This document shows, piece by piece, positions 2,010 to 52,478 of a stretch of DNA of 64,000 nucleotides (its first letter is position 1; every line of letters starts with the position of its first letter). Origin of the DNA: Cyanidioschyzon merolae. Lineage: Eukaryota. Under the pieces are notes generated by a model. The model was not told the DNA's origin, did no database searches, and saw only the letters and a list, made by a program, of their open reading frames with translations. The DNA lies in the NCBI GenBank assembly GCA_000091205.1, contig AP006493.2; one strand, written 5' to 3'. The translations under genes were made by a program, and so were the position numbers.

Positions 2010-3054
2010 TTGGGGCGTTCGCGCGACAGAGCGCACAGGCCTCGTTGACGCAAGTGCACATTCGCGGTGGCGGCATCCATGAAGGCCGCCAGCGCGGCCT
2101 ACGAACTCCATGTGCTCTGCTCCAACAAGCGGTACACGTGCACCCGTCACACTGGAAATTCCGAGTCGTTACGCTCGAGAATTTCGACTTTTTGGAGCAC
2201 CATACTCGTTCATCCACTGCCACGGAACCGGTCCCAGGTGTGTAGATGCGGCGCCCCGGCCTTGCTGACTCGCTGAACCGTCCCATACCAGTGGCGTACC
2301 CCACGCGAGAATCCAAGCCTATCTCTCATGGCCACTGATATGTTTTCATCGAAAATCATCAGCGTTTCACGACGATGCCGCCGCTGAGTCCTAAAAGACT
2401 CGATCGACACTTCGCTTGACACAAAGCCGCTCACCGCTCCAAAAGCACCAACCGTTCCCAAATGTTGATCGCGGCATTCAGGGGTCGGAGCAGATGGTGC
2501 TGGCGCGCACGGTCGCTGGTGGAATCAAACCATGGCAAGTCGCTCGCCTTCGACTACCCAAGAATCTGTCCTTCGGTAACCCGTGCGGCACATAAAATCG
2601 TGCATCCATCTGTGTTTCATCCTCATCTTTTCTACATGTTTCAGCGTGAACCGGTGCTCATGGTGCGTGCGTGTTGTCCTCGACTCATCGTTGTGTATCC
2701 ACTGAATCGATTCCTGCAGTCACTCGATGCCAACGTCGAAGGATCAGTAGTACAGCGCGCCCGGCGCCATGGGCTATCACCAAAGGAAGCGACTTTTCTG
2801 TGATTTGTCTGTCTACAATGATTGAATTGATTGCCAAGTGCACGCATCGCGCCTCTATAGAGCCGAAACTGTTGGCGACCACAGCTGATGTCTTTCGCTC
2901 CTTCCAAAAATCGTCCGAATGAGCCGTTTGGGGCACTGGTGTACTCGTCGAACGAAGCGTTCACAGCATCCCGATCAGTTCAATACAATGGTCAGCATGT
3001 CGAAACGGACAAAGAAGCAGTCACTCGTCTTCTTGGTATACCTCCGGGTGTCCA

Positions 3055-3537
3055 TCAAGACTGACGTCCGGTGATGACCAACCCTGCAACGTTGAGCCGC
3101 TTCACCTGCTTTTCGTTCAGGCTTTTCGCTCCGTCCGCTGGATAGAGTCGTATGGTGACGTCCATGGCGCCTTTCCACCCGGGATCCGCGCCAGCCCCGA
3201 AGTGTTTCTCTGCATCTACTCTGAACGGCTGGAATCGAGTGTCGTCGCTCGACTGAGGCCTAGATCTCACGAAGCGCATGCCAACTGATATACTCTCTGC
3301 CTCTACCGCCACTGTGAACATCTCTCCATTTCCATGCTGCAAACGAGAAACCCTCGAGCGAGCCTCGTTAGTGCTCTTCGCGAAGCGGTTCGAATGCAGG
3401 ATGCGTAGTCGCAGAGACGAGCCGCAGCACATTGATAACGCCCTCAGTACACTATACGAGTGTCTGCCATGAAAGAATGGGTCATGGTCCGACATATACG
3501 AGCCGCGTCCTATCGAGGCTTGCGAATTCGTGAGCAC
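3055..3537 (-). CDS. Hypothetical protein, 160 aa, with no domain I recognise.
   Basis: The only support is a 160-codon open frame in GC-rich DNA. It could be spurious. Confidence 0.2.
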   Translation of the reverse strand: MLTNSQASIGRGSYMSDHDPFFHGRHSYSVLRALSMCCGSSLRLRILHSNRFAKSTNEARSRVSRLQHGNGEMFTVAVEAESISVGMRFVRSRPQSSDDTRFQPFRVDAEKHFGAGADPGWKGAMDVTIRLYPADGAKSLNEKQVKRLNVAGLVITGRQS

Positions 3538-19665: not shown

Positions 19666-22600
19666 GTCGGTGCGTCAACGCATCGAGGCGGGGTGACGCT
19701 GGCGCGCCGTGCCGACTCACGTCATCTAGGGGCGATTCGCAAGCATGAGACTGACTCCCTCAGAGGCAGCGTGTGGAGGCGATGAGGTTAACCTGCCCTG
19801 GCGTCCGCGAAGGTCACGTTGTTCTCTCGAACCCCGATGGGATGAGCGATCCCGTACCGCAGAAAAGGGCTAGGTATTTCTCGTTGCAGCAGAGCCGCTT
19901 GATGAGCGGTGAAATCCACAAGCAGGGTGCGCGTCGGACACGGGGAGAGACGGTGAGGGAAACGCTCCCGAGTGTTTTCGGGAGACGCACTGATACGCGA
20001 TCCTTCGATGCTTGAGCAGCGACAGTGAAACCTGGTGGGAATTGCGTTTTCCAGATACAGCATCTGTCAGCAGCATGGCACCTGCAAAGCATGTGTGCGT
20101 TTTCTCTGCTTCTGGTGGAGATCGCATTACGCGACGCGTCCCATACGCCGCACCATTGCCGATGCGTGCTGATGCGTTGACGTGCTGCGTGCCGGCGCGT
20201 GACGCATGTTGACTTTCCCGCCTAACTGAGCGTTCCTCTCAGGAATGCTGCTGTGAAGATGAAGAACGGTGTCTCAGTGATGTCTTGTTCCCTTGATGAT
20301 AGTGGCTCAGACGGGGCGCTGCGGCAGTCGATACGGAGAGGGGCGTCCCCGTCTAGGAACGGCAAGCGTCCGATGACCCGTTTCTGTGCAGTCATAGAAA
20401 GTCATGGAAAATTCGTATCATTTACCAGTTCCCGTGAAAATCGTTGACACTACACAGACACAGCGTTTCATCTTTGCGTAATTGCTAAACTTTCTGTAAC
20501 TGTGCCTTGTTCTCTGCGGCAATTTTTTTAAATTGACAAAACGTTTACATCGGCCAGCGTTCTCCGATTATGCGCGTTTTCCTTTCTTTTTGGGGTTTTT
20601 CAGTGCGCGGCAAAGTATCCATCAAACTCCCTACTTCCAAGTTACATAACCTATGCTTCTTCTGGGATATTCTGGTCATTCCATACGTTCTATCGTGTGT
20701 GCCTACTGCCTGCCGAAAGCGACAGCAATGGCGCCTGTAGCGCCGGTGCGGTCGCTGCACGGAGACAGAACGGCGTTGCCGTACCACACAGAGAGGGCAT
20801 CGGCTCGCGGTTCTGTCCGGGAATGCAATGCCGTGTGTGTCGCGGTCACTGATTCCCTTTCATTGCAAGTCTTTGGTACTTCGGCACAACGCTCACGCTG
20901 AGAATTAGACGATGCTCTGGAAAGCTGACTCGATTCGTAGCCGCTGAACGCTCGGGGCCACGAGAATCTACCAGATGTCAATTGAGACGTTCGCGTTTCA
21001 GTGCGGAACGTGCATGCGCGCAATATCGTGGACGCAATCACACGACAGCAGGCCGCTCGCCCCCGGTGGCGTCGCCAGTCGACGTTCGGTCAGCTTGTCG
21101 TACACCATCGCATACATCAGAATCTGTTTCACGCAATTGTTCTCTATGTGTTTCAGCGCGCATCCGTGCTCGTGATTCGTACATGTAAAATTGAACTCTT
21201 CCATGGGCATTTCACAGTGTTTATTTACGTCTTTCGTGGGACGCTGTCGCTGGAGAACGCTTGCAGCTTGTGCGCAACACAGCAGCACGCGCACCCGCCG
21301 TTGGCTACCACCCATCGCAGCGAACGATTCGTCATTTCCTTTTTTGCAACTCCTTGAACAAGCTGTAGAGTCCAAGCTTCCCGCCTCTGTATGAACAGAA
21401 CTATTGGCGGCGCCAGCGCGGTCTCATGCGCTCTCTGGGGCATCGCATCGTGTGCATAAGTACTCGCGTTTCTGGGACAACTAGCTGAGGCAAGAACGCC
21501 CACAGAAAGCGCGCCAAGAAGCACTCGCCATTTGCCCACACGGTCTCGCTCGTTGGGGCTGGTTTGAAATTTTTCTGGGCATCGTAGCTGTAGATACCCG
21601 AATCACTGACGTGCCGCGGAGACTCGTCCCCGGATTCTAAGAGGCGTCTGTGCACACCTCCGATCCAACGATTAGGCCGAAGTGCATCTTCGGCATCGGA
21701 CATTTGTTGTATTGCCGCTTACAGATTGGATTGAATCGTTTCAATGGAAAGTGGACAAATGGTAGCCCTGCGTCGGTGACTCCTATAAACGGGTGCTCGA
21801 CGAGATGCGTCAAAGCGAGAAAAGGGTGGCGAAGGTATACAACGACTCGTCTGAGAACAGTTTGAAAAACAGCTTCTGTGACCGGGATTCGAACAACTTC
21901 TCCATGCATCCGCGAACGTTAAAATCGAGTTCGACTACAGAGAAGATGCGTTCTACTGGATGAAACCAGTGAGCATAGGCTGACACGAGGAACAGCTCAA
22001 CGCCAACCTCAGTTGCGTAGACTTGTTCCTGAGCCTTTGCGTTGCAGAAAGCAGCTCTGTCTAAGAGCAGGCCAGAAGAATGAGATAAGGAGAAGTCACC
22101 GTGACTGCAGCGATGAGGCATGAGCTGTTGAACGACCGTGTCGATTTGGCGATTTCGAGCCAGCTCCAAGATTCAATTGCCGCGAGTGGTGGTGTCTTTC
22201 GGAATACTCGCTGATCTCTTCTCTCCGAATAAAAATTCGCCCATCGTTGAGTATCCATATGCAGGTCTAGCATTTCTCCTCAACAAAATCTCATCCAGTG
22301 CGACAAACACCTAGCTCTCGTGTAATGAGCGTTCGCATGGCAGTATGGAATCCATTGGTCGTTGGTCAGCGAACATCTATCTGTCAATGAAGCACACGGT
22401 TTTCTTTGACCATCCAATGCTCTTCATCGTCGTTCGAATCAAAGGCACGGAAACTTCACATCCCGTCACGTCTTTGATAGTACTTCATAGGAAACGTATG
22501 GAGTGGAATGGATTACCCAGGAGACAGTCGTGGAGATAGACGATGATGAATTTTGTTCAGGGTGCACTAGGTTCCGGGAAAAGACTACGAATCAGTGATT

Positions 22601-23950: not shown

Positions 23951-24556
23951 ATGCGTGGCTATGTTCACTGCATAGCACGGCACTGTGCAAGCAAATTTGC
24001 TCTACCACAAGCGACATTCGTGCACGTCTATTCTGAATACATCCGCCGATAATTTACGAGACTGACTGCGCTGGTCGTTGTCTTGGGCGCACGCGCTCCA
24101 TAGTCGTAGACTCTAACGGAACGGCATGCTCTGGCATCCGCACGATGTTCGAAGGCGCGAACGTTCAGGTGACGCGACGTTGTTTCATGGGCGTGTCTCT
24201 GGGATAGCCATGGATCGCTTCATATAGCATGACAAGTCGTTGTGTGCTGCTGCCGCGGTGCGACGGGAGAGCAGCCCCATGCAGCGCACGGCAGAGCGAA
24301 CTTCGCATGCGACTCCCCGCCGGGTCATCGGCAGCGCTGGCGCATCCAGAGGTATCTGTTGATATTCCTGGATTTTACAGGAGTAAGCGATTGACGAAAT
24401 AGAGTCTCTTCGCTGATCAATGGAAACGCTCGCGCATCCATGGGCATCTGGTCTGCTTCATCGATTCTTCATTATAGGCATGTCAGACAAGAATGGAACG
24501 GGCAGCTTTGCTGACTCGGGCGAAGAACGTAAAGTAACGGTCTCTTCCGATCGTGA

Positions 24557-25838
24557 TGAATATAGGCCTTTTGTGGGATTTCTCTGCGACGGATAACCTG
24601 TCCGTACGCTAAACCTCCAGCATAAAATATGCGAATATCTGTTCTGCCTTCATCTCCATCTTCGCAAGCAGATGAATACTGATGGCAGCGTTCGTGTCCC
24701 GATTGCGCCGCTTCCCGCCTTTGTCGACGCTATTCATGCAGAGGCGCAAGTTGCGATCCGAGCTTCGCTTGCAATTTTCACTGTCTTTCTGTGCAGCCTC
24801 CAGACGCACTTCGCAGCGTTCATACACGAATGCAGACAGATGTGCCAGCGAGTGTCCACAGCAGCTCCTCGTCTGGCGGTCGGTCTTCCTTGGATGACCG
24901 TTTGAATCATCGCTCGGTACCAGCCATTGGCGGTTGCAGGAGGCATCCTGCGATACGCTGCTCCAAATCCGTGTCCGGTGCGGTGCACGACCAGTGAGGG
25001 TTGCTTCCGACTGGTCTAACCCCGATAAGCACACCGCTCCATTCCACAGAGGATATATGGAACGCCTCGTGCTCCACGGGGAAACGTGCAGCTGGAGCGA
25101 AATCTACGACGGAGAACACTTGGAGAGATTTCGCTTCGCCTCACTCATTCTTGTACAAACCGGTGATGCAGTTTTCACTCGAAGGAATCTCTGCGATGAC
25201 TGAAGACAGAGCCCAGCACTCTTGTCCATGCGAATACAAGCGACGGGAGCCTCTGCGAGCTAATGACGTGAGAGCTACGAGTGTACTGTCGAATTACGAA
25301 CCCTCGTCGACGGCTGCAAAGCCTGGAGCATACGTCGTTCGAGCGGAATCGAGCATCGGACGTGAAGAGTTCAGTGTGGCTTCCGCACACGCTCGGGAAC
25401 AAATCGTCAACGCGCGACATCGCGTACGTTACCTCAGCAGTCCAGCAGCGCGAATAGCTGCGCCCCAGTCCACTCTTGCATCCGAAAAATCGAACACATG
25501 AACCGTGCGCGATGTGCGGACACCTCGCCAACGGAAAGCAGAAGCGTCGAGGCTCGTACCTCTGAGTCACGTAATGATCTCACTTGTTGTACGAACCGTT
25601 GTTTGAGTGCGTCTCGTACGCCTTTGATTCCGATACCGTTGCGAGTTCCAGCGCCGATGCGTCGAAAGAGCCACGCTGATCAAGAGACACCCGAGAATCC
25701 CAAAACGAATCATGAAACCGGAATCCATGAATCCCGCACACGCAACGTCGAATCTATACACCTATGAAAATGGTTCGGAAAATACATCGAAGTCGAGGAA
25801 GAATGGAAGCGGTTCAGTGTTCCATGTTGATTCAACAC
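24557..25838. repeat. Dispersed ~1.28-kb repeat, copy 1. It is ~98-99% identical to the copy at 39386..40667, in direct orientation.
   Basis: The two copies sit at a constant offset of 14,829 bp with no indels. The ORFs 24672..24905, 25001..25501 and 25498..25767 are near-identical to 39501..39734, 39830..40330 and 40327..40596. The flanks diverge. Confidence 0.9.
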
Positions 25839-30510: not shown

Positions 30511-31623
30511 CTAGGCATACTCGATCCGCCATACGCCTAGAAAATACCGTACTCTCATCCGCAAAATATCTAGCGCCATATTGACGATCGCCCGCACCAC
30601 ACGCACTTTGCTCCCGGGAATTTCGGTCCAGTTGACCCCAACTTCAGCGATCGGTATCCGCAGGCGTTGCGCGAGATACAGCAGCTCAACATCGAATGCC
30701 CATCGTTTCAGGTGCTGTGTCAGAAAAAGCGTTCGCGCTGACTCTCTCGCAAACAATTTAAACCCACATTGCGTGTCACGAATATCGTGAACCCCGCCCA
30801 AGTACTTGACGAGCAAGTTAAAGCCCTTGCCGAGCAGTTTCCGACGCCAGTCGCGCAACGCATGGATCTGGGGCACCGATCCACCACCAGCGCTCGACTC
30901 CGCACGTTCACTGGAGGATGCGTTGCTTGCGCCCAGTGGCGACACATATCGACTACCGACGACGACCGCGCCGAGCTCGTGATCCCAGTCGGCAATGTCG
31001 TGCATCTTCCGTTCCAGGTATTCGAAATCCCTGAAACGCGTTGCACCGTCCGCATCCGCCATCAAGAGCAGTTTCCCACGCGCAACCAGCATGCCCTCTT
31101 TCACTGCAGCGCCCTTGCCCGAGTTCTGTGGAAGGACAAGGACACGCACTTTATCGCTTCCGTATCGATCAGTGAACCGGTGTGCGAGGCGAACCGTCGC
31201 GTCCCTGCTACCATCATCGACGATGATCAGCTCATAGGTGAAGGGATCAGGGCTGTAGCCAGTGGTGTCCGTGGACCGCCTCTCCAGGTACTGCAGGGCC
31301 TCCTGCAGCGTGTGCTCCAGACGCGCTTCCTCGTTATACGCTGGTATAATCACGCTCAGGTACACTGAGGCAGGTTCGAAGATCGTCGGAAAAGACGATT
31401 TTTTCTCTTTTCCCGCCTTGGGATCGTAGAAAAACTTTCCAGAACCGCGTGCGGCTCGTGCCGCTGTTTTGAAGCGAATCGCTGCTCTGGACAGCGGCCG
31501 CGGCCGTAGCGCCGTTGCGAGAAGGCCCCAGCCCACCGCAACCATGACCGCAGCAACCACCACAGAGAAAAAAGTCATCGGCGGGAACGGCGTCCACGAC
31601 CATATCACGCTGACGTGAAGCAT
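30511..31623 (-). CDS. ALG5: Dolichyl-phosphate beta-glucosyltransferase (ALG5), a GT2-family enzyme.
   Basis: ALG5 hallmarks are present after an N-terminal TM segment: SVIIPAYNEE, ELIIVDDGSRDAT, LPQNSGKGAAVKEGM and LMADADGATRFRDFEYLE. Confidence 0.88.
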   Translation of the reverse strand: MLHVSVIWSWTPFPPMTFFSVVVAAVMVAVGWGLLATALRPRPLSRAAIRFKTAARAARGSGKFFYDPKAGKEKKSSFPTIFEPASVYLSVIIPAYNEEARLEHTLQEALQYLERRSTDTTGYSPDPFTYELIIVDDGSRDATVRLAHRFTDRYGSDKVRVLVLPQNSGKGAAVKEGMLVARGKLLLMADADGATRFRDFEYLERKMHDIADWDHELGAVVVGSRYVSPLGASNASSSERAESSAGGGSVPQIHALRDWRRKLLGKGFNLLVKYLGGVHDIRDTQCGFKLFARESARTLFLTQHLKRWAFDVELLYLAQRLRIPIAEVGVNWTEIPGSKVRVVRAIVNMALDILRMRVRYFLGVWRIEYA

Positions 31624-32599
31624 AGCGAAAAGAGCGCACCCGGAACGCTCAACAGCACCACGCCCACTCCACCACGTCTCGCGCTGTGTCCAGTCGGAAG
31701 GTGCTTATTCTGGCAGATGCCGCGGATTTCAGCACTGCTGATCTCTGGCGAGGCGGGAGTAACGCGCGCGCTGTTGCCAGCTGCCGCCAGCAGCACCATC
31801 GAGGCGCGATCTTTCAGTGTATGCCCGGCGATTGACAAACGCCGCGCCGTTTTCTTTCGATGACAAAACGTTTAGTTGGACCATGGATCCCTGATTGCGG
31901 GGTGGATAATTGTTTTCGGGAACTCGTCGACCACGATGCACCCTACATTCAATTTCCATTACTTGTATTTCCTTTTTCCGATGTATTCGTGGTTTTGTAG
32001 GTTGTATTGTTCCAAGAGTGTCTGCTTTGAGCAGCAGCGATGGCAGCTATACCGTTGGTGCGGATGCAGCACGGAGACAGAACGGCGTTGCCATACCACT
32101 GCGGGCGTCGGCTCGAGGCGTGGTTTAATCGACACGGGGTCGGAGTACATGACAAGTCTGGGAGCCAGGAAGCTGCACATACAGGCGTGCTATCTGCGGG
32201 TGCGCGAAGCGATTTGCTGGGAGATAACTGCAGCATGGGCTGCGCCCGGACGCAGCCTAACTGCTCCGAGTCCCAGAATAAACAGCATTGCGGATGCGTT
32301 GCTCAGATATCACTACAATGCCTGCCACTGGGGGAAGCATGAAGCATTAGTCTGGGAGACTCGTCCGGCACGCTGGACCTTACTCTATTACGGAAACTTT
32401 TCCCCTTTTAACGTTGATCGTAGCGAAGAAAAGAAATTTTTATATCATTGCTTGGTAATGGTGGGTCTCTGCTCTTTGTTCTATGTAGCGCGCTCGATAC
32501 GCGCATCTCCATATCTGGCAGGTATGGAACACGACGTGCATCTCGCTGCTAAAAGAGGAACGAGATCCTGACCGTTCGTGTGTAGCTCTAGCTTCCAAG

Positions 32600-35050
32600 T
32601 TGTACGGGGGTTCAAGTCATAGCTGATTATATTCTTTCGATTCAATTGTGTTTCAACCCTCAAGCAAGTATGTTCAAGTGATTTTCCACGGTTTGCATCG
32701 GACGCGTATGAAATGAGATCGTTTTCAAAACAAAAAAGGAAGGAAATGGGAATTGAAGCGGAGGATCCCGGAGGCGCATTGTCACCGGCTGGCGGAAAAA
32801 AAACGAAAAACAGAGCCCAACGTAGAGACATAAGACAAGACGAAGAAGCAGAAGGCAGAGGCACGACGCCAAAGGCCGCAAGAAAGACGACAGTACGACG
32901 AGATGGTGGTGAAAGCCGGTCTTCTTAAACATACCAAGGATCCGTACAAAAAAAGTTGCAAGAGGGCATCGGAAACCGTGTCGCAACCTACTCCACCAGT
33001 GTTTTTAAGGCTTCTCCAGGAATTATGCATTTCATGAGGGAGATGTATCGCGACGTGACGGACATCAACACAGTTGAGGTTCCCGAAGAATCGTTCGACA
33101 CGACCCTTATTCGCCACCTGACGCTTAGCATAGGGGAAACGTCGAGGAGAAATGAGCGAGTAAATGACCTCCACGAATATCACGCCGAATACCGCTTCAA
33201 CGATACTCGATGCAATGGTGACGCGGATATTTACGAATACAGTGCGATGACGTACCTCACGAGTCTGGAGAACAATATGATCATGATCTTGGAACGTTTC
33301 AAGTTATGCTCCTTCTTTGCGCTGTGTCCGGGCCATTCTCGCAAAGGGATATGGAGCATCATCAATCGCGCCACGAATGATTGTAGGAATCAACAGGAGA
33401 TCGAATTCGTTGACAAGAAGGCATCACGTAGGAGTAGGAATGAAGCTTCTGTGATCCGCGCGGCCATTCAAGAGCACCGTGCGGTCTTCGGGCTGCTCAA
33501 TCCGGAAGAAAAGTTATCAGAGATGAAAAAGAGGATGTTATCCACTCATTCTACGGTATTTCGTCTACCTGAACCGAGAACTCGAACGCAAGGCGGAGAT
33601 GGAGCTGGGTATGCGGAAAAATGCAGAGTCGTAGAAACGAAAGGCTGCGCTTCTGGGGAAGCGCTTCGATTTCGTTACGATATGCAACAGCAAGTCACAT
33701 TTTGTGGCAATCAACTCCAGCGTCCTTCATGGCATCATGAGCGAGATCTGTCCGGAGTTCAATGTCAGGAAGACAGAGATCATCGGCGTAAAACCGGGAC
33801 ACGTACAGGAAGAATATCTTCGAGTTCAAACGTCTCGAAATGAGCAAGCAAAAAGTATTTACTGGGATGATCAGAACCGATGGAGTATCCATATGTGCTC
33901 AGTATCCGCGCCTGAGGACGGATCGTCCTATTGTGTCTTTGATATCGCCCTCGGCGAAGCGTGAAGAAAACAACCACGGGGATCCTGTGACGCAGGAGGT
34001 GCAGGAGAACGACTTTGTCGTTGGCGCTGACCCCGGCAACACGAATATCGTCACAATCGCAGTACCCAAGAGTGCGGAAGATGGCATTGACGGCATCTTG
34101 CGTCAGAAAAACATGCATCTTTTAAAGTTCTCGATAGCGAGATACTATCGGGAATCGGGAATAATGAAAGCGAGGAAACAAAATAAGAAATGAAATTCAG
34201 GAATGAAGGCGCACCTGGAAGCGATCAGCAAAGTGACTTGCCGTGGAGCGAGCTTTCGATCCGTCCTGGAGTTCATGGAAGCTCGCGTTGCTCGTGACGA
34301 GTAGCTTTGAAAAGAGTATACAAAGCCCAGGTGGGCTCGTCAGTGTACGAACCTGCACTCTGGGAAACAGCGCGCATTCGCCGAATTGTTCACTGAGTTG
34401 AGCGCCCTCGAGGACCACTAGAGTCAGCGGCTCGTACTAGCATACCGTGCAGGGCGCTGGGCGTCCGAAAAGGGGACATATAAGCCCCATCGACAAGAGC
34501 GTACAGGAAGTTCGCTCGCAGTTTTTTCACGATACCGATACATGAGTTCCGAATATCGTATGTGCACCACGAGCTAATGTGCACACTTCAAAGGGTCGAG
34601 ATGGAAATCTCCCAGCGGATCCCGGAGGATATAGAACAGTATGGAGCGCTGGAGGAACAGCAAATGGAAAGAAGGGCGCAAGTTCGAGGACTCCTTGCAT
34701 TGGTGAGTACAATGAACGCGAAGAAACAGATGGAGTTCGTAAACCGGGACTTGAGCGCCGCCATCAATATCAGGAGACGTACCGTGCTGGACAAGAGACC
34801 CGCGGCGCTGACGCAAGCCAACCTTGTAGGGCAGCCCCTCAAGGTCGAATCACATAAAGACAAGTTGAAACCAGCAGTAGGTGGCCGGTCCAAAACGACT
34901 GAGAGGCGTCTGCACGTGGGCGTAGGGATATCCACGCTATCGGCGTTATGTAGGTACGCATGTATGCCTGGTTTGCCGGCGGCATCGATGCTCTGGTAAT
35001 CTTCCAGGAACGCAGCTTCTAACCAAATGCCCCCTGGTGCGAACATGCCA
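32600..35050 (+). mobile_element. AT-richer ~2.4-kb island containing a degraded TnpB/Fanzor-like (OMEGA-type RuvC nuclease) element.
   Basis: Base composition is visibly lower in GC than the surrounding ~58% GC DNA. ORF fragments in all three plus-strand frames carry RuvC-I-like and RuvC-III-like motifs (see the pseudogene entry at 32956..34999). I could not discern terminal repeats. Confidence 0.5.
32956..34999 (+). pseudogene. Fragmented TnpB/Fanzor-like RNA-guided-endonuclease homolog. Pieces lie in frames 1 (32956..33843), 2 (33704..33964), 0 (33840..34193) and 2 (34562..34999), with about 290 bp of the gap (34194..34480) holding no long ORF in any frame and no zinc finger.
   Basis: Frame 0 reads [24 protein letters not shown], which fits the RuvC-I G-x-D-x-G-x-x-N...SDG motif. 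It is followed by a basic helix ([30 protein letters not shown]). Frame 2 at the 3' end reads FVNRDLSAAINIRRR, which fits the RuvC-III motif D-x-N-A-A-x-N-I. A WED-like sequence [15 protein letters not shown] lies just upstream in another frame. At least two frameshifts and stop codons are therefore needed to join the pieces. The expected CxxC...CxxC zinc finger before RuvC-III is absent. Confidence 0.5.
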
Positions 35051-35549
35051 GCGATAAGCGCGGGAGAGGGTTTACATCCTCGCGATACGCACATACATCC
35101 CATGCGTTTGGGTCTAGTCTTCGCCTCAAAAACAGATGCTTGATCGATACAATGCATCCCCGCGTATTGCGCCTCCAGCTGACACCCTCCGGGGACTGGG
35201 CGCTCGGACGATGCGTTTCTCGGGGCATCATCGCGAGAAATGCGCATCATTGCTGGACGCTGCGTCCGATCTGGTAATGCATGCGTGCCGACGCACCTGT
35301 TTACCCGTCGTCGCATGCGTGCACGCATGCGCCTCGCGGGAAAGAATGACACGCACGCAAGTGCACGCATCAACCCGAGCGTCTCGATGCGTTGTCTCTC
35401 TCTGGAATGACGCAGCGTCGTGTAGCGGCCCTGATGACATCGGCGCAGGGTACGCTGCTTGCACGCTACAGATATAGCAGACTACGCACAGAGACTGAAC
35501 AGTAGTCTTTACGAAGCAGACGAACGTACGATCCTCTGCGCCCCGCCGC

Positions 35550-38294
35550 ATGTCCCGTCTGGTCACAGGTAGTTCTCGCTCGTTGCGCACGCTTTCGAAG
35601 AGGAGCGGTACGTTCGCTTCACGCTCGACTCGGTTGACGTCAACCAACACGACCCGATCGCTTGTGCTTGCTGGAGTGCTCATCCAGGACAAGGGAAGGC
35701 GTGTCGGTGTGGCTGCATGCTTCGTCGATGCCTGTCGGGTCGAGCTGCGTCAGTTCACCGACAACTACGCATACGACCGCCTGGCTGTGGGCCTGGAGGT
35801 GCTGGACCCGTCAGAACTGGTGGTGCCTGATGGAATAGCGCTTTCCATTCTGGCGCCGATACTCCAGCGTGATCAAGGGGTCGCGACTACCAGCATATCG
35901 GGCGACGGCAGCGGTACAGTGCATGCGGACTCTCGTCGCGCTGTGCCGATCCCTCGACGATTATTCAACGAGCAAATCGGTCTGGAACTTATGGAACGAT
36001 TCGCCGTGGACGCAGCCGCGATACGTCTAAGCGCGTCACAGCCCGAGCGTGACCTCGCAACGGCAGCATGTGCCGCAGTGTTGCAGTATCTCGAGCACCG
36101 CGGAGAGTTGAGTTTTCGACCAAGGGCCGTTCAATTCGTGTTCACGAATTGTGAGGACGCGCTTTTCATGGACTCATGCACCGTGCATTGCTTGGAACTG
36201 GTGGAGCGCGGCGACTCGGAAAGCGGCACCGACGCAGACATATCTCTACAGCGTACGCTGCGTTTCACGCAGACCGCCGAGGGCGCGCGCGCCCTGCGAC
36301 GCGCGATCCTCGAACCACCCGCGAATCGGACCGTCATCGAGGAGCGCCTGGATGCCCTAGATTTCATGCTCAGCAATGATGCGATTTACTACGAGCTTAA
36401 AGAGGCGCTTCGACAGACGCCCTCGGTCGAAAGAACGATCGCGCAGATTTTCCATATCTATCCGCGAGCACGGGAATCGTTGGGCATGCAGGCGCAGTCC
36501 CATATTCGGGATGCGCGCGTTCATGGGGCGCAATCCATCGACCATGTCGTCGACTTCCGCTTTGTGCGTAGCGTCTGGCAACTGAGACGGGCACTCGACA
36601 GCCTCTTTCGCATACGCGAAGCGCTCGATGTGTTCCTGGAAGAGCGCTCGACCCAGACCGGTACAAGGACCTTACCAGTACTTCTGGAATGGTGCCGGAA
36701 CGTTGCCCGTCTCACTGCACTGACCGATTTGCACCATGAGCTGGGGCGCTGTCTCGCCTCTACGACAGAAGTAGAGCTCGAGCTCGGTTCAACCGAGCGA
36801 AATCGCTTGCATATTGCTTTTGCCCTGCGCGCTGGCGCCAATCCATTGCTCGACGCTGCGCGTCGTGCGCTGTCCGACACCGTATCGAGCGTACATCACC
36901 TCGCTGAGGCCACCAAGGGTCAGTTGCGATGCCCTCGTCTGCATGTCGCGTACAGCACGCTGCGCGGATACCACTTTGTTTTGCCTTTGCGAGACGCTGT
37001 GCAGCAATCGCTTACTCGCACGGAGATCGGCGGCGTTCTCTTACGGTATCCGGTACGTTCAGGAAAAAAACTCCTGTTCACAACCGATGCGCTGATTCGT
37101 TTGAACATGCAGTACCAGGAGACGCTGGCAGAAATCTGGCATTTGAGCAGCAAAGAACTTTCCAAGCTGGCGGAAATGGCAACGAGCACCGCTTCAGCGC
37201 ACGCGATCCACGAGTTTTGTGATTGCGTGGCTGCACTGGACGTCACCCTCGCGCTGGCGACATGTATTCGACGAGCGCGCGACCGCAGTTCGTGTCCGTG
37301 GGTGCGACCACAATTCCCCGACACCAATGTCATGGCCATGAAGGATGGACGCCATTTGCTCCTGTCCCATCTGTACGAGGCACAGCGGCGCGATCCACCA
37401 AGACCGAACGATGTCTATATAGATGACGCTCATAACGTGATGCTTCTCTTCGGTGCAAACGCGTCGGGCAAGTCCGTGTACATGAGACAGACAGCGCTCA
37501 TTGTGGTGCTCGCCCAGATGGGGTGCTTCGTACCAGCTGCTTTCGCCTCCATGCCTGTCTACAGCGTGCTTCTGGTGCGGAGTCGCTCTGATGACGCTCT
37601 GGAACATAATCTCTCCTCGTTTGCCATGGAGATGCGGGAAATCACAAGCGCGCTTCACTACATTGACGGAGAGGCGCTCTCCAGCGCATTAAATCCGTTA
37701 GACCAGGAGCGCCGCATTCACAAACTTGTCTTATTCGATGAAGTCGGACGCTCGACCGGCTCGCTTGATGGCAAATCCATCGCCTGGGCGATGCTCGAGT
37801 ACCTTTCTGATACGACCGCACATATCATCTTTGCCACACACTTCAGCGAGCTTGCGCGGACGCAAACGTACCTTCCTAACGTCCATGTGATGCACCTACA
37901 GTCACGAGTGGAGAATGGCACGCTCTATCATGATTACAAGCTTGTAGAGGGTGCGCCAGCGTCTTCTCGTTACGGGGCCGAAGTTGCTGCCCAAGCCGGA
38001 CTCCCCAGCGCTGTGGTCACACGCGCGTTGCAGTTTCGCGGAGTGTTCAGCGGAGATGCCTCCACCTCAACAACGACACCTACAGCAACAGATACTGGAA
38101 ATCAAGGATTCCTGAGTATCGACGACGAAACTTGGGCCCATTGCAGATGGTATACCAAAGCCAACACCCTACTCCAGCGACTTGTCATGCTCTCGTACGT
38201 GGCCACTTCACCTGAAGACCAGTGCGCAGGCGTAGCCGAACTGGCTTCGGTGTTCGCGGACTTGTTCGAGACGCCAACAGCGGTTACTCGCTAG
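35550..38294 (+). CDS. MSH4: MutS homolog, most similar to the meiotic MSH4 subtype. It lacks the N-terminal mismatch-binding domain.
   Basis: The MutS ATPase Walker A region reads LLFGANASGKSVYMRQTALIVVLAQMGCFVPA. Other shared segments are SSFAMEMREI, LFDEVGRSTGSLDGKSIAWAMLEY, IFATHFSELA and YHDYKLVEGAPASSRYGAEVAAQAGLP. These resemble the MSH4 sequences STFMKEMKEI and TLFATHFLEL. The MutS-family call is strong. The MSH4-versus-MSH5 subtype is moderate. Confidence 0.8.
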   Translation: MSRLVTGSSRSLRTLSKRSGTFASRSTRLTSTNTTRSLVLAGVLIQDKGRRVGVAACFVDACRVELRQFTDNYAYDRLAVGLEVLDPSELVVPDGIALSILAPILQRDQGVATTSISGDGSGTVHADSRRAVPIPRRLFNEQIGLELMERFAVDAAAIRLSASQPERDLATAACAAVLQYLEHRGELSFRPRAVQFVFTNCEDALFMDSCTVHCLELVERGDSESGTDADISLQRTLRFTQTAEGARALRRAILEPPANRTVIEERLDALDFMLSNDAIYYELKEALRQTPSVERTIAQIFHIYPRARESLGMQAQSHIRDARVHGAQSIDHVVDFRFVRSVWQLRRALDSLFRIREALDVFLEERSTQTGTRTLPVLLEWCRNVARLTALTDLHHELGRCLASTTEVELELGSTERNRLHIAFALRAGANPLLDAARRALSDTVSSVHHLAEATKGQLRCPRLHVAYSTLRGYHFVLPLRDAVQQSLTRTEIGGVLLRYPVRSGKKLLFTTDALIRLNMQYQETLAEIWHLSSKELSKLAEMATSTASAHAIHEFCDCVAALDVTLALATCIRRARDRSSCPWVRPQFPDTNVMAMKDGRHLLLSHLYEAQRRDPPRPNDVYIDDAHNVMLLFGANASGKSVYMRQTALIVVLAQMGCFVPAAFASMPVYSVLLVRSRSDDALEHNLSSFAMEMREITSALHYIDGEALSSALNPLDQERRIHKLVLFDEVGRSTGSLDGKSIAWAMLEYLSDTTAHIIFATHFSELARTQTYLPNVHVMHLQSRVENGTLYHDYKLVEGAPASSRYGAEVAAQAGLPSAVVTRALQFRGVFSGDASTSTTTPTATDTGNQGFLSIDDETWAHCRWYTKANTLLQRLVMLSYVATSPEDQCAGVAELASVFADLFETPTAVTR

Positions 38295-38850: not shown

Positions 38851-39332
38851 AAGACGTTGTTGTCGGGAGCCGACAACCCGCAGGTCAGCGGAACATCGTT
38901 TAACGGCAATCATGAGGGGATGGAGTGGAGCGGGTTGTTGTCGGGAGCCGACAACCCGCAGGTCAGCGGAACATCGCTTAGCGGCAATCATGAGGGAATG
39001 GAGTGGAGAGACGTTGTTGTCGGGAGCCGACAACCCGCAGGTCAGCGGAACATCGTTTAACGGCAATCATGAGGGGATGGAGTGGAGCGGGTTGTTGTCG
39101 GGAGCCGACAACCCGCAGGTCAGCGGAACATCGCTTAGCGGCAATCATGAGGGAATGGAGTGGAGAGACGTTGTTGTCGGGAGCCGACAACCCGCAGGTC
39201 AGCGGAACATCGTTTAACGGCAATCATGAGGGGATGGAGTGGAGAGACGTTGTTGTCGGGAGCCGACAACCCGCAGGTCAGCGGAACATCGTTTAACGGC
39301 AATCATGAGGGGATGGAGTGGAGCGGGTTGTT
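38851..39332. repeat. Minisatellite of ~6 tandem copies of a 78/79-bp unit. Two unit variants alternate, giving a ~157-bp higher-order repeat. Each unit contains a perfect 8-bp-stem, 3-nt-loop inverted repeat.
   Basis: The unit cgacaacccgcaggtcagcgg recurs at 38871, 38949, 39028, 39106, 39185 and 39264. Each unit contains gttgtcgg-gag-ccgacaac. Variant A reads ...atcgtttaacggcaatcatgaggggatggagtggagcgggttg, and variant B reads ...atcgcttagcggcaatcatgagggaatggagtggagagacgttg. The small ORFs across it on both strands are repeat artefacts. Confidence 0.95.
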
Positions 39333-39385
39333 TTCAGATTAATGAGGTTTACGTTGTATATAGATTGGGCTGCACTCTAACGCTA

Positions 39386-40667
39386 TCAATATAGGCCTTT
39401 TGTGGGATTTCTCTGCGACGGATAACCTGTCCGTACGCTAAACCTCCAGCATAAAATATGCGGATATCTGTTCTGCCTTCATCTCCATCTTCGCAAGCAG
39501 ATGAATACTGATGGCAGCGTTCGTGTCCCGATTGCGCCGCTTCCCGCCTTTGTCGACGCTATTCATGCAGAGGCGCAAGTTGCGATCCGAGCTTCGCTTG
39601 CAATTTTCACTGTCTTTCTATGCAGCCTCCAGACGCACTTCGCAACGTTCATGCACGAATGCAGACAGGTGTGCCAGCGAGTGTCCACAGCAGCTCCTCG
39701 TCTGGCGGTCGCTCTTCCTTGGATGACCGTTTGAATCATCGCTCGGTACCAGCCATTGGCGGTTGCAGGAGGCATCCTGCGATACGCTGCTCCAAATCCG
39801 TGTCCGGTGCGGTGCACGACCAGTGAGGGTTGCTTCCGACTGGTCTAACCCCGATAAGCACACCGCTCCATTCCACAGAGGATATATGGAACGCCTCGTG
39901 CTCCACGGGGAAACGTGCAGCTGGAGCGAAATCTACGACGGAGAACACTTGGAGAGATTTCGCTTCGCCTAACTCATTCTTGCACAAACCGGTGATGCAG
40001 TTTTCACTCGAAGGAATCTCTGCGATGACTGAAGACAGAGCCCAGCACTCTTGTCCATGCGAATACAAGCGACGGGAGCCTCTGCGAGCTAATCACGTGA
40101 GAGCTACGAGTGTACTGTCGAATTACGAACCCTCGTCGACGACTGCAACGCCTGGAGCATACGTCGTTCGAGCGGAATCGAGCATCGGACGTGAAGAGTT
40201 CAGTGTGGCTTCCGCACACGCTCGGGAACAAATCGTCAACGCGCGACATCGCGTACGTTACCTCAGCAGTCCAGCAGCGCGAATAGCTGCGCCCCAGTCC
40301 ACTCTTGCATCCGAAAAATCGAACACATGAACCGTGCGCGATGTGCGGACACCTCGCCAACGGAAAGCAGAAGCGTCGAGGCTCGTACCTCTGAGTCGCG
40401 TAATGATCTCACTTGTTGTACGAACCGTTGTTTGAGCGCGTCGCGTACGCCTTTGATTCCGATACCGTTGCGAGTTCCAGCGCCGATGCGTCGAAAGAGC
40501 CACGCTGATCAAGAGACACCCGAGAATCCCAAAACGAATCATGAAACCGGAATCCATGAATCCCGCACACGCAACGTCGAATCTATACACCTATGAAAAT
40601 GGTTCGGAAAATACATCGAAGTCGAGGAAGAATGGAAGCGGTTCAGTGTTCCATGTTGATTCAACAT
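39386..40667. repeat. Dispersed ~1.28-kb repeat, copy 2. It directly abuts the 3' end of the minisatellite.
   Basis: It is near-identical to 24557..25838, with the same ORFs carrying a few substitutions. It begins about 55 bp after the last minisatellite unit. Confidence 0.9.
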
Positions 40668-48158: not shown

Positions 48159-51100
48159 CGCGCTGTACGCGGCGGATACGCGTGTTGTACGAGTCGAAGC
48201 GTCCGCAGGTAGACGTCTTATCGAGAGCGCTGCCTTGTACCAGCGGGCGCTTTTGATGAAGCACGCGACCTTGGGTAGAGCGGCGGAGCTGCTGTAGCTG
48301 CCCGGGCCTTTGTCCTCCAGAGACAGCGTAGTGTGCGCGCAGGCTTGCGTGTCACGCTATGGTCCTCGACTCGAGCACCGTTGTGCTGCTTTCGAATCGG
48401 GCTCTGGTGGACGCTACGCCGTTCACTGACCTAAACAGCTAGCTACCTCGTCGGAAACCTGCTCGAATACGAGCGCTGACACTGCCAACTTGGAGGAGCC
48501 TGGTCCCCAGCTGACTCGAGGAGTCGCGGGCGACGTCCAAGGCACGTCTCTGTCAACTGTTTAGTCCGTTAAACGACGAGCCCGAACTTTCGTGAAGAGC
48601 CCTCGCGTTTTTTCTTGTCAACGAGCTTGGACGACAGATCTGGGGTACCTGAGCGCCCAGACCATGAGCAGAGCTGTACCTGCAGCGCCTCTGGCTACCA
48701 GCGGTTGACAGTGCAGCGAAAGCGAGTATCCAATGCCGTGCCGTACCGCACCGCACCGCACCGTTCTTTACCGAGTAGTGTAGTGCAGTGCTCTCTGACG
48801 CTCAGAGGAGAAGACTTTAGCGAAACTCACTGCTGATGCCGACGCTATGGTGTTCTGGGAAAGATGGTCAGGTCGTTGAGTTCGGTATGAGACGCGCTAG
48901 GCACTCGCGAAACTTTACTGAGAGCGTTCTGTGTTGCGGAGAGACCTGGTTCCAGCGAAAAGACCTCCGCGCTAGTCGAAATGGCTGGACTCGCGGGTGC
49001 ATCAAGGGAACACGATTTCAGAAGACGGTCGACTAAGAGACTATTTACCTGCACAGGTTTCTTTCGTTTGTGTATGCTTTCAGAGAACTGCAGCTTGCCT
49101 GCATCGCCACGTTTTCCAGGACACAGCGTTTTCAATTCGAGCAGCGAGTTTGAGAGTACTTGCACCAGCGAACCTTTTCTCTGTTTCTATTTTTCTCGCA
49201 GGAATCGAAGAATGGGACGCCACTTTCCCAGAGTGAAGAAGGTTTCCGGAAAGAGTTTTATTCTGCCACTTGAAGCTTGCGAAAAAACGGCAATACTTCC
49301 ATGATTCTGTCATTCTGAGGTCAGCGAGTGGATGGACCACCCTTTCCGTAGTCCCGTGTTCTGAGCATCATGCACCGGCATCAGAACTTTTTACATGTTA
49401 GCGACACGACTGTATCCTCGAAACCCCATTCCACATCACATGTTCTCGTAGAAAGATTATGGAGCATGCCACAGGGTCTGAAGTTTCTACACTCATGCTA
49501 CGAACCGCGGTTTGGAGACACGGAGGCACAATACGTCCGCCTCTGTTGAGGATTGTGATGCATTGACTACCCCGCTATCGATGACGTATGAAACGCGAAT
49601 GCTTCCAACAGCAGCGACGGGTGCTCGTCTTGCTCAGTCAAACTTCCTTCAGATGCAATGGTAGACCTGGATATGGGTACTCAAAAAAAGGGAAAACCGC
49701 TGTTTGTAAAGGAAAGACACGCGAAAATGCCGAGAATATCATCCGTCGCAGCCATTCCATCGCATAGGCACCTCTGAATCGCCAACTAGATAGGATCCTT
49801 CAAGACATCATCCTTCGTTGAAGCATTCTTCGCGGCTTCTGCCTCGCACATACCTCTGTCCTGCTGTTGGACAACGTCGCCGTCCATCGCGAGAAAAAAC
49901 CCGGTCAAGGCATACGCAGCTGTGATTGGCGTTGAGCTGCTGATAGCACCAGCCTATGCTCTTTGGTTCAATTGAGTCGAAGGCGTCTCGTCGGTTGTCG
50001 AACGCAAGGTCAACGCGCACGGTCCAATAGACGAGTCGTTCGCATTCGCGTAAACGAATGGTGCGGGACGCCACCAGGGACCGTATAGCGTCGTACGCGA
50101 GGAGTTCTCGCCTAGCTTCTATCGCCCTGAAGCACCTCGGTAAGGAAACGTTCGTGAGCGTTACGGACGGAAGGCTGCACGCTGTGAATATTCCTATGGA
50201 ATTTTTGGATCGGCCCGACGTGCGACAGCACACTTGATGCAGGAAGTGAAGATGCGATGCAGTAGGGGGGTAGGACCAGGGATTGGCGCAGGTGCTTCCC
50301 AGAATAACTTGACACGTCACCACGCGACGTCGAAGATCGAAAAACCTAGAATGCATATGCGAAGTGCCATCAGACCAGGTTCAAGGATGCAAAGCGTATG
50401 CAGGTGAATCCGGAACGCTTCCCAATGCGCACTCTCTAAGCATTGTACGCGGTGGACCCTCATTATCGTATCGCGACAGAGAGGGCGACTGTCTGCAGGG
50501 ATCCCCAGCTTATCGATGGAGGCAAGCGACGGCCTGGTGATGTCTAAAGAGCTCGCGGTAGTACTGAGTTCTGGTTCGTATCGTCTGTGCTCATAGGGTT
50601 GCTCTCGACCTCGGACCGCCGCACATTGCATCCAAAGGACAGTGGAAACGTGATACCCACGTTTCGTGGATCTCGCGCAAATACGTTTTCCTGAACAAGG
50701 CTCCTCGACGCGATACAGACTTCCTCTCTCGATCCGAGCGTCGTATCCTCCTCAAATGACTATGCGATGTGGCCCATATTTCGGGAGATTAAGGCCCATT
50801 ATACCGCCGTAGGCGATTACCTACTGCACTGTGGAGCTTCCTCGATGGGGTACGGCCTGTCTCTGGGTATAACAATGCTGTGCTCGACCGAATTCGTCAA
50901 ATGCGGTAGCGAAGCGCGTTTATGGACGCTCGTATACTGAAAAGTATCGGAATGAATTGTACACGGACGATGAATACCAGAGAAATCTCAGTCTGAATAC
51001 AGTTCGTAAAACCAAGGCCTGACTAAAACAACAAGACTCAATTTTCAGCGGTAAGTGCAGGGAAAGACGTGGTGATACGCGTGGATCCCTGGTTGAAGAG

Positions 51101-52478
51101 CATCATGGCCGTCGTGGTACCTCTATATCAAGAGTGCGGTTCCAAAGACCCGGCAGACAAACAGATCAAGCTCCTCGACTTGTTCTGAGTTCAAACTGAT
51201 CGAGATTCGGGCATCACAGACGCCGTGGTGCATACCAACAACTAGAGTAAAGACTTGGCATTCATCTGGGCGGGGTCAGACCCGTGTCGAGCATCGGACG
51301 ATGCTTTGTGCGCTTCATTGCAAGAGTACGTGAGCGTGCATACGGTTCATGCAGACCATCCCTAGCACAAGTACACCAGACCGCCTTGAGGTCGCCAGCG
51401 GTTTCCGTTCTACGGAGGCATGAAGCGTGCTTTCGCGAACTTGTTCAATCAATTGGAAAACAAAATTACCGACGATTTGCTTCGTCTGGCGGCGGCTTCT
51501 CGCCCTTGACATGCTGCACTCCTGATCCTTCGACGAGAGCGTAGAGCGAATGCAGGACTCGATGCCCTACGTGTCCCGTCGAGGCATCACGACGACGTCA
51601 ACGCATCACGAGCACGGCTGCACGCTGAAACTGATGGGCGAGAACAGCATGAGAAAGAGACGGATACACGAGCTGGTGCACGTTGAGCAAGCCGAACGTC
51701 AGCTGGCGAGGTTATCGAATGTAAGCAGCTTGCTATGGCGTGATTCTACCAGCGACCGTGCGCGCAAGCACTTTCTGCCCCTGGACTTGAACACATCCCT
51801 CAACGTCTAGAAAAGCGTCGCGCTGCTGGAGCGTCCGGCGTTCTAGTGTCCAGCGAGCTTTTCAGACACGGAATCGTTTCGTCGTTTCTATAGACATTGT
51901 GCTGAAATGCCGGCGACTAGAAATGGAATAAACCAGTGTTCAGAAGAGAGGACACTGGCTTTCCGTATTGAGTAAGGCATTGGTGGGCCATGGTCCAGCG
52001 ATCGAGAAATGCTGAAGCGTGGTATACTTACTCCGGGAACATTTCTCCAAGGCAATTGATGAATGTTCATGATCTCCCGCGATTCGGTATTACTGAGTAG
52101 AGCATGCCCACGCGCTGGCGCTGTAGCTAGGTGCCTGTAACGAAGAGAGCGCCGTCGCTCCCGTTATCTTTGCCAGCGCTCCAGATCACCTGATACCCCT
52201 GATTTCCTGCATACCAATCTACAAAACGTCTCTTTTGGCGCAGAAACCTATTCGACTATATCGAGGTTTTGGTGTGGAAGCAAAACGTATCCGCGTCCAG
52301 AACTGACGCATGGACATCGATTGGGTTCCAAGCGTACGCGCAACACATGGACAGCGTTTCGTTGCTCAGGCACGATACGAATCCAAAACCGCGTACGCAT
52401 ACCGAGGATATCTTGGGGATGCGCGCTGAGGCAGCGGCTGCACTTAATGCACTCGGCACACATAACAGGAGGCTTCAA

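Follow-up and report, generated by a model that had tools for sequence, protein, structure and literature searches.

The intergenic region between ALG5 and MSH4 of Cyanidioschyzon merolae almost certainly contains one old, dead, full-length copy of the repeat CMe-1A, at positions 31858-35005 of the window (the whole 64,000-nucleotide stretch of contig AP006493.2, assembly GCA_000091205.1, that was analysed). CMe-1A is a non-autonomous, Fanzor1-bearing repeat family of this species, and the copy described here yields no full-length protein. The original prediction, made by reading the letters without tools, had favoured a pseudogenised Fanzor-type element at this place. That reading stands: a profile of the family matches solved Fanzor1 structures, a near-intact relative is predicted to share the Fanzor1 fold, and the copy aligns to the published consensus at 80.6% identity. 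The locus is an ordinary one and the repeat family is already known; one of about 150 known CMe-1A relics has now been placed precisely in the ALG5-MSH4 region.

Element structure and insertion site

We aligned the region globally to the 3,169-bp CMe-1A consensus of Bao and Jurka (2013, Mob DNA 4:12; PMC3627910), found in supplementary file 2 (Additional file 2) of that work; the CMe-1 protein came from Additional file 3. The alignment covers consensus positions 1-3169, with 2525 of 3132 aligned bases identical, and places the element on the plus strand. A second, independent consensus, from 35 metagenome copies, gave 76% identity over 32486-35017. Bao and Jurka described CMe-1A as a family of ~150 copies, ~3 kb in length and ~80% identical to the consensus, that lacks terminal inverted repeats (TIRs) and whose 5' 635 bp also occur in TE-N2_CMe; they classed CMe-1 as Fanzor1 and stated that some copies are still intact (PMC3627910). 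The published traits (length, divergence, lack of TIRs, 5' 635 bp) agree with the 80 related loci that we examined independently.

From left to right, the copy comprises a 5' module (31858-32476, consensus 1-635, 79.3% identity), the part reportedly common to TE-N2_CMe; a non-coding leader up to the start codon (32477-32745, consensus 636-905, 78.4% identity); the relic of the 734-codon Fanzor1 (CMe-1) frame (32746-34940); and a degraded 3' non-coding tail with the right end (34941-35005, 61% identity to consensus 3112-3169), all on the plus strand. The 5' module is solitary, without the Fanzor part, in related loci such as L034 (11285-11815, minus strand), where it lies beside ATP synthase beta and NOP10, and an 88-bp piece of it is present elsewhere in the window at 20723-20810. 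No second gene was found inside the 3.15-kb element. Around 31858 and 35005 we likewise saw neither TIRs nor target site duplications (TSDs); the two ends have no repeat in common, inverted or direct, and the flanks differ. The element had been predicted to span 32600-35050, but its start lies about 740 bp further left, and the 5' module of ~620 bp and the leader had been overlooked.

The products of the flanking genes match BAM80562.1 (ALG5) and BAM80563.1 (MSH4) of C. merolae 10D exactly. These accessions are consecutive and the gene annotation is empty between them. The locus was indeed unannotated as far as genes are concerned, but as a repeat it belongs to a family published in 2013 (PMC3627910). 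The two genes are divergent, and the element occupies most of the 3.9 kb that separates them. The transposon end had been anticipated near 34.9-35.2 kb, right in the 5' region of MSH4; the right end at 35005 precedes the ATG of that gene (35550) by ~545 bp. The insertion flank on the 5' side is T-rich (CGTTTTCTTT, 31847-31857, plus strand). Across 14 independent insertion sites, T accounts for 58% of bases at positions -10 to -1 versus 21% further off (Fisher p = 3e-18).

Age and coding state of the copy

The predicted drop in GC, described as a ~2.4-kb stretch below its surroundings, was borne out: GC is 0.502 over the element versus 0.551 overall, the lowest of any 3.2-kb segment in the window. 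Does this composition mark a recently acquired island, brought in by horizontal transfer or recent transposition, as had also been suggested? The low GC and the distant relatives found in giant-virus contigs would both fit such an arrival. However, GC is 0.48-0.51 across all copies of this old family and 0.50 in its consensus; the low GC is therefore family composition and no sign of recent arrival. Moreover, the copy is ~19% diverged from the consensus with saturated substitution spectra, its insertion and lesions are common to all sampled relatives, and the viral relatives are partial matches at only 23-56% identity. We consider a recent arrival highly improbable. A viral origin was also rejected, as only distant giant-virus relatives were found, and so was the idea that RIP-like or deamination bias had lowered the GC, given that transitions and transversions are nearly equal in number (297:298) and the consensus GC is itself 0.50.

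The coding region of this old copy is broken throughout. Its ATG is kept at 32746, its stop is lost (TAT at 34938), and after frame correction 499 of 724 codons (69%) specify the same residue as the published CMe-1 frame. Six indels against the consensus change the frame (+1 at 32796, -1 at 32950, -8 at 33531, +1 at 33789, -1 at 34478 and +1 at 34921), so the pieces can be joined only through frameshifts, as the prediction had it; a further -3 indel at 34716 is in frame. Six unambiguous premature stops lie within 32831-34421 on the plus strand, starting at 32831, 33632, 34191, 34302, 34308 and 34419, where CAG, GAG, TGG, GCG, TGG and GAG of the consensus have become TAA, TAG, TGA, TAG, TGA and TAG, respectively. 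Additional stops at 34481 and 34923 fall at indel junctions and are alignment-dependent. The stretch 34194-34480 has no open frame, as reported earlier, yet one of its frames retains coding homology (stops at 34191, 34302, 34308 and 34419), and the catalytic Glu lies further downstream. Codon differences from CMe-1 comprise 225 non-synonymous and 87 synonymous changes, a near-neutral ratio, and the copy has drifted close to neutrally.

Could the breaks instead be introns, programmed frameshifts or sequencing errors in a live Fanzor gene, an alternative that the original prediction had kept in view? The start codon and the three catalytic codons are kept, and the frameshift at 32950 lies in a homopolymer and is missing from the relative L088. 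However, C. merolae has very few introns and no extra intron-like sequence is present, conserved blocks are interrupted by the six indels that change the frame and by at least six premature stops, and the codon changes look neutral. Furthermore, four independent environmental assemblies (L001, L002, L088 and L089) share the major lesions with the window copy, the indels at 33531 (-8), 33789 (+1) and 34478 (-1) and the stops recurring in them. Because these lesions are common to the four assemblies, they are neither sequencing errors nor introns; they are genuine and fixed across related populations in the environment. A live gene at this locus has next to no chance of being correct. In these assemblies the relic is 99.1-99.4% identical versus 99.6-99.7% for the flanking genes.

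Relationship to Fanzor1

Fragments of the dead copy from all three plus-strand frames matched the family profile (E 1e-12 to 3e-58, with local HMM matches reaching E 1e-83), which confirms that they are collinear with one protein family, and the fragments matched near-intact relatives at E 4e-174. A family profile of 92 sequences, from an exhaustive representative search, matched PpFz1 (9cf0, E 1.1e-20), SpuFz1 (8gkh, E 2.2e-14) and GtFz1 (9cer, E 8.8e-9) in the PDB. The same search with a shallow profile of 18 sequences returned no Fanzor and only a spurious match to angiogenin at E 1.7. For the fold (WED, REC, split RuvC, TNB), the near-intact relative P0001 took the place of the window copy, which is broken. 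The AlphaFold model of P0001 (pLDDT 83, pTM 0.81) has Fanzor1 chains as its top seven Foldseek matches, with E values from 9e-17 to 1e-13 and a target-normalised TM of up to 0.73; Cas12 proteins rank after them, with Cas12f at E 0.07 or worse. As judged by sequence profile and modelled fold, the protein family encoded here is genuinely Fanzor1.

The Pfam profiles that had been proposed for a check found nothing in the raw ORF fragments at E values up to 10, and intact relatives gave no match above threshold, the sole candidate being Cas12f1-like_TNB (PF07282) at E 0.002-0.2. The silence of Pfam on the raw fragments is what would be seen if the two motifs first noticed had come by chance from unrelated sequence with no TnpB/Fanzor homologue. 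Such a coincidence is contradicted by the collinearity of three frames on the family profile, at up to E 1e-83, by the near-intact relatives, and by the match of both profile and fold to solved Fanzor1 proteins, the former at E 1e-20 to 9e-9. We reject chance resemblance outright.

Both motifs that led to the Fanzor reading are genuine: the RuvC-I-like motif (34014-34052) and the RuvC-III-like motif FVNRDLSAAINIRRR (34736-34780) align to RuvC-I and RuvC-III of solved Fanzor1. All three catalytic codons are kept in the window on the plus strand. The RuvC-I Asp codon at 34029-34031 (GADPGN, from 34023) aligns to DPG of PpFz1, SpuFz1 and GtFz1, the RuvC-II Glu codon at 34544-34546 (IHEFRIS, 34538-34558) to DEFRTS/DEYKTS of solved Fanzor1, and the RuvC-III Asp codon at 34748-34750 (VNRDLSAAINI, with VNRDLSAA from 34739) to NRD. 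The consensus motifs are GADPG, VDEFRTS and NRDFNAAINI, and the triad is D431, E603 and D672 in CMe-1 numbering. The catalytic E sits on the loop that leads from the fifth beta strand to the TNB domain (Xu et al. 2024; PMC11423790). The 15-residue segment proposed as WED-like (33851-33895) turned out to be translated out of frame; in the homologous frame this place is covered by a 29-residue stretch at 33819-33905.

A C4 zinc finger is part of the Fanzor/TnpB motif according to Bao and Jurka (PMC3627910). Between the [TS][TS] motif and RD, this zinc finger is absent in CMe-1, in its near-intact relatives and in the window. CxxC pairs are indeed missing from 34194-34480, as had been observed, but not through decay: since the consensus protein and near-intact relatives also lack them, their absence is a family trait. 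Across the wider algal clade, RGLLWCxST alone remains of the zinc finger. The loss of the zinc finger is a family-level departure.

A 75-bp (25-residue) unit at 33952-34027 on the plus strand is single in this copy and occurs in tandem, in one to six copies, in other family members, where it is seen as adjacent multiple matches at other loci and, in the aligned proteins, as variable blocks. The 25-residue repeat stretch of the P0001 model (residues 374-469) has pLDDT below 50.

Structure at the right end

The 3' 145 nt of the CMe-1A consensus, where a Fanzor1 omegaRNA would be encoded, are predicted to fold into a terminal hairpin region (fold z = -2.83), and in the window copy the long stem of the consensus has lost its 3' arm. 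The proposed 3' structure is 82.5% paired, with covariation no better than in shuffles (31-52 of 500), and RNAalifold on 44 independent 3' ends gave a weak consensus that lacked compensatory pairs. A lack of covariation is what neutral decay of the copies following insertion would produce. The predicted right-end hairpin has two subfamily variants, and pairing is kept in both. An Rfam search of 31500-35600 at E up to 1 was empty.

Has the relic been co-opted, for example to serve the divergent genes ALG5 and MSH4 as promoter or spacer, or to give rise to a non-coding RNA? It takes up the greater part of the 3.9 kb between the divergent genes and is kept in all sampled relatives. However, conservation between strains is slightly lower in the relic than in the flanking genes, its 3' structured region is eroded, it matches nothing in Rfam, and no positive evidence for a role was found. 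We regard co-option as very improbable.

Discussion

What might the ancestor of this dead CMe-1A copy have done? The established behaviour of Fanzor1 and TnpB, for which work by Saito in 2023 is said to be the source, provides the basis for proposing an ancestral function. The ancestral protein of 734 residues would have associated with an omegaRNA produced by transcription of the element's 3' end, and its RuvC triad (D431, E603, D672) would have cut guide-matching DNA beside a short target-adjacent motif (TAM). Guided cutting of this kind may have favoured the retention or spread of the element, which would have had to be mobilised in trans since it carries no transposase gene. For the Fanzor1 mechanism we also draw on Xu et al. 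(2024; PMC11423790). The window copy is incapable of these activities, with no full-length protein and an eroded 3' terminal structure.

Novelty, if there is any, lies in the CMe-1A family rather than in this copy. None of the 80 related loci holds a fully intact copy when compared with P0001 plus its C-terminal extension; the best, L007/L009, has an 819-codon open frame with a single late stop. Near-intact copies such as L007/L009 could persist in environmental Cyanidioschyzon populations. The T-rich motif and terminal hairpin would point to a single-strand mechanism that is IS200/IS605-like or Helitron2-like, and insertion directly 3' of the T-rich motif together with the right-end hairpin could define the transposition mode, the TAM of the nuclease and the omegaRNA. 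That CMe-1A is a zinc-finger-less acidothermophile Fanzor1 lineage whose flank and hairpin would reveal all three is a proposal to which we give a small but real chance. The lost zinc finger, T-rich flank, terminal hairpin and variable 25-residue repeat are of specialist interest only via intact copies.

For annotation, this stretch is best treated as repeat DNA and masked, and it should not be pursued as a genome-editor candidate. Old Fanzor1 relics, at least three of which lie in the 64-kb window, can explain low-GC stretches of the C. merolae genome. Our analysis also illustrates that a decayed Fanzor can be recognised from two motifs by tool-free reading of a sequence.

How does CMe-1A compare with known systems? 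Like TnpB of IS200/IS605 and IS607 elements and like Fanzor2, it has a RuvC-type nuclease core that travels as a passenger on a mobile element lacking TIRs, and its T-rich insertion flank is reminiscent of TAM-adjacent insertion. In contrast to them, it resides in a eukaryotic host without a TnpA gene (Y1 or serine recombinase), and Pfam OrfB_IS605 and OrfB_Zn_ribbon/Cas12f1-like_TNB stay below threshold; the best structural matches of P0001 are Fanzor1, not TnpB or Cas12f.

The solved Fanzor1 proteins SpuFz1 (8GKH, 9CEU-9CEZ), PpFz1 (9CF0-3) and GtFz1 (9CER-T) have the D-E-D triad at the same positions, and significant profile similarity extends over WED, RuvC-I, the helical insertion, DE[FY][RK]TS and RuvC-III. 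The near-intact relative is predicted to have the same overall fold, although sequence identity is only 12-15%. Unlike the solved proteins, the CMe-1A family has lost all four TNB zinc-ribbon Cys, with SYTHHELGC...RGLLALVST in place of CxxC...CxxxxC, and has a disordered tandem-repeat insertion ahead of RuvC-I; the window copy, moreover, is dead. Within CMe-1A itself, the window copy is a pseudogene whereas Bao and Jurka state that some copies are intact, and it has one 75-bp unit, as does the consensus, versus up to six in some environmental copies. In all else it resembles the published family, with the same host, the same 5' module and 734-codon frame, the same lack of TIRs and recognisable TSDs, and an end-to-end identity of 80.6% that is typical of the family's divergence, and there is no categorical difference between the two.

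A dead CMe-1A copy between ALG5 and MSH4

The original prediction placed a degraded Fanzor element between ALG5 and MSH4, and it was correct. Judged by sequence, the element (window 31858-35005, plus strand) is a dead copy of CMe-1A, an already described repeat. Previous work reported one Fanzor1 family in C. merolae, with ~150 copies, a 3,169-bp consensus that these copies match at ~80% identity, a 734-residue protein (CMe-1), no TIRs, and undetermined TSDs and element class; its 5' 635 bp are common to a separate repeat, TE-N2_CMe, which has ~70 copies (Bao & Jurka 2013, PMC3627910). Positions 1-3169 of the consensus in supplementary file 2 of that study align to window 31858-35005 with 80.6% identity overall (5' module, 79%; leader, 78%; ORF, 82%; 3' tail, 61%). 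We found no inverted or direct repeats linking the element's two ends (around 31858 and 35005).

The left neighbour (30511-31623, minus strand) encodes a GT2 glycosyltransferase, and the right neighbour (35550-38294, plus strand) a MutS-family protein. Their products exactly match C. merolae 10D BAM80562.1 (ALG5-type) and BAM80563.1 (MSH4), respectively. These accessions are consecutive, and therefore nothing is annotated between the two genes. The element region is the lowest-GC 3.2-kb segment in the window (0.502 vs 0.551 overall). Thus, the drop in GC noted originally is real, but it does not indicate recent acquisition, as a GC of ~0.50 is common to all copies. The right end, expected near 34.9-35.2 kb in the 5' region of the MSH4-like gene, falls at ~35005, ~545 bp before the MSH4 ATG. 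Just 3' of MSH4, a 79-bp unit is repeated six times in tandem (38852-39332; 93% matches). A 1,282-bp direct duplication of 98.8% identity (24556-25837 and 39385-40666), with its duplicates 14.8 kb apart, flanks the ALG5-MSH4 region on both sides.

Decay of the window copy

Reading the window copy along the plus-strand consensus frame, we found that the start ATG is kept at 32746 and that frame-changing indels occur at 32796 (+1), 32950 (-1), 33531 (-8), 33789 (+1), 34478 (-1), and 34921 (+1); the -3 at 34716 preserves the frame. The frame is cut short by stops at 32831, 33632, 34191, 34302, 34308, and 34419, two more premature stops fall at indel junctions, and the ancestral stop codon is lost. 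The frame-corrected product is 69% identical to the CMe-1 consensus frame, and of the codon differences 225 are non-synonymous and 87 synonymous. Transitions and transversions are about equally frequent, so the decay has been near neutral. All three catalytic codons are retained (34029, 34544, and 34748).

Could this instead be a live locus whose breaks reflect introns or sequencing frameshifts? The same major lesions are found in four independent environmental assemblies of the locus (relic, 99.1-99.4% identical; flanking genes, 99.6-99.7%), where differences are limited to homopolymer indels at 32732, 32796, and 32951. These shared lesions rule out sequencing error, introns, and recent arrival of the element.

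The peptides that led to the prediction are present in the window. However, the 15-residue 'WED-like' peptide (33851-33895) comes from the wrong frame; read in the correct one, this stretch aligns to WED strands of Fanzor1. The segment 34194-34480 indeed has no open frame and contains four stops, but it is nonetheless homologous coding sequence that includes the strand SQRLVLAYRAGRW. RuvC-II had been expected in this segment, whereas the catalytic Glu lies further downstream, in IHEFRIS. CxxC pairs are absent as described, but this is a family-wide trait, and they are missing from the published consensus protein too.

Dispersed copies, element ends, and older relics

A query made by joining the element's three-frame ORF fragments matched unnamed metagenome proteins (≤752 residues; E 4e-174 to 9e-93) that have in common RGLLALVST...FVNRDFNAAINI and one further 25-residue stretch. 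A pattern scan revealed 297 related places in metagenome contigs, where the host genes are eukaryotic and intron-less. None of the 80 that we retrieved is intact: measured against the best copy (L007/L009; open stretch of 819 codons, single late stop), each contains one or more stops or frameshifts. At least 45 distinct right flanks occur among these 80, and thus the element is a dispersed repeat. Inter-copy homology covers ~2.75 kb; in several copies it extends ~640 bp more leftward, reaching window ~31850, and this 5' module is also found by itself elsewhere in related loci. Left flanks form only 8 groups, compared to 45 right-flank groups, and the sequence 5' of the L007 copy (L007 9000-9667, part of a 255-residue ORF) recurs inverted upstream of the copies in L026, L028, L042, L043, L048, and L067. 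These observations suggest that the 5' module comes in alternative forms or that a second repeat is associated with the element.

The 10 nt directly 5' of the element start (window 31847-31857) are T-rich, typically TTTTCTTT(C). In left flanks of 14 independent insertions (L011-L083), T makes up 58% of these positions, compared with 21% at more distant ones (Fisher p = 3e-18). The flank may represent a target or TAM motif; alternatively, it may be a degenerate oligo-T of the element itself. At the other end, inter-copy homology passes the published consensus end by ~7-10 nt (TTTGGTG).

The consensus 3' 145 nt, a candidate omegaRNA, are predicted to form a long stem and a terminal hairpin (z = -2.83). 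Covariation in 44 independent 3' ends was not above shuffles, Rfam gave no match for the element region, and the 3' arm of the long stem is destroyed in the window copy. The terminal hairpin, read from the consensus 3' end, the loci of alignment A3, and window 34941-35005, has two subfamily versions, GUCGUUCGA-CUU-UCGAACGGC and AACGUUUUUC-UUUU-GAAAGGCGUU, which both pair fully, with overall covariation not significant.

Two further, much older Fanzor1-like relics in the window are collinear with the family profile: 49980-51852 (plus strand; profile 41-100, E 6e-6; 300-486, E 4e-16; 535-600, E 1e-7) and 2395-4338 (minus strand; profile 11-104, E 2e-7; 311-607, E 4e-10). Both have many stops and ~30% identity to CMe-1, and retain DPG/DPW and LNAAINI remnants. 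Only one C. merolae Fanzor1 family is listed by Bao & Jurka (PMC3627910). In a separate low-GC patch, an 88-bp fragment (20723-20810) that is 78% identical to the 5' module adjoins weak Fanzor-like protein matches (20974-21709, minus strand; E 0.002-0.1); together, they may represent a fourth, nearly erased relic.

Relationship to characterized Fanzor1 proteins

Neither the raw ORF fragments against Pfam nor a shallow family profile against the PDB gave any match. Searching 1.84 billion representatives exhaustively, we detected 1,436 relatives, many of 600-700 residues; one of them, a hypothetical protein, comes from the green alga Tetrabaena socialis. The only Pfam record for this clade is DUF8286 (PF26935), and it is weak. 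Across the 1,436 representatives, the TNB zinc ribbon has lost its first CxxC and RGLLWCxST alone is kept; in the C. merolae branch, all four zinc-ribbon Cys are gone (family alignments A1 and A2, P0001-P0168). Just before RuvC-I, a 75-bp/25-residue unit (~KHEEKKEADPATQEVEDNDFVV; window 33952-34027) occurs in tandem one to six times depending on the copy (seen in L026, L041, and residues 374-469 of P0001, a near-intact relative protein), and AlphaFold predicts this repeat to be disordered.

A profile search of the PDB bore out the Fanzor relationship: a 92-sequence family alignment matched the solved Fanzor1 structures of Parasitella parasitica (9CF0; E 1.1e-20), Spizellomyces punctatus (8GKH; E 2.2e-14), and Guillardia theta (9CER; E 8.8e-9), with the DPG, DE[FY][RK]TS, and NRD motifs paired. 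An AlphaFold2 model of P0001 from the same alignment (pLDDT 83, pTM 0.81) has predicted disorder confined to the tandem-repeat insert. The top seven Foldseek matches of this model in the PDB are Fanzor1 chains (E 9e-17 to 1e-13; target-normalised TM ≤0.73), and Cas12 proteins rank next. By profile similarity and predicted fold, the family encoded by the element is Fanzor1. In Fanzor1, the catalytic Glu sits on the loop preceding the TNB domain (Xu et al. 2024, PMC11423790), and this loop corresponds to the DEFRTS position of the family.
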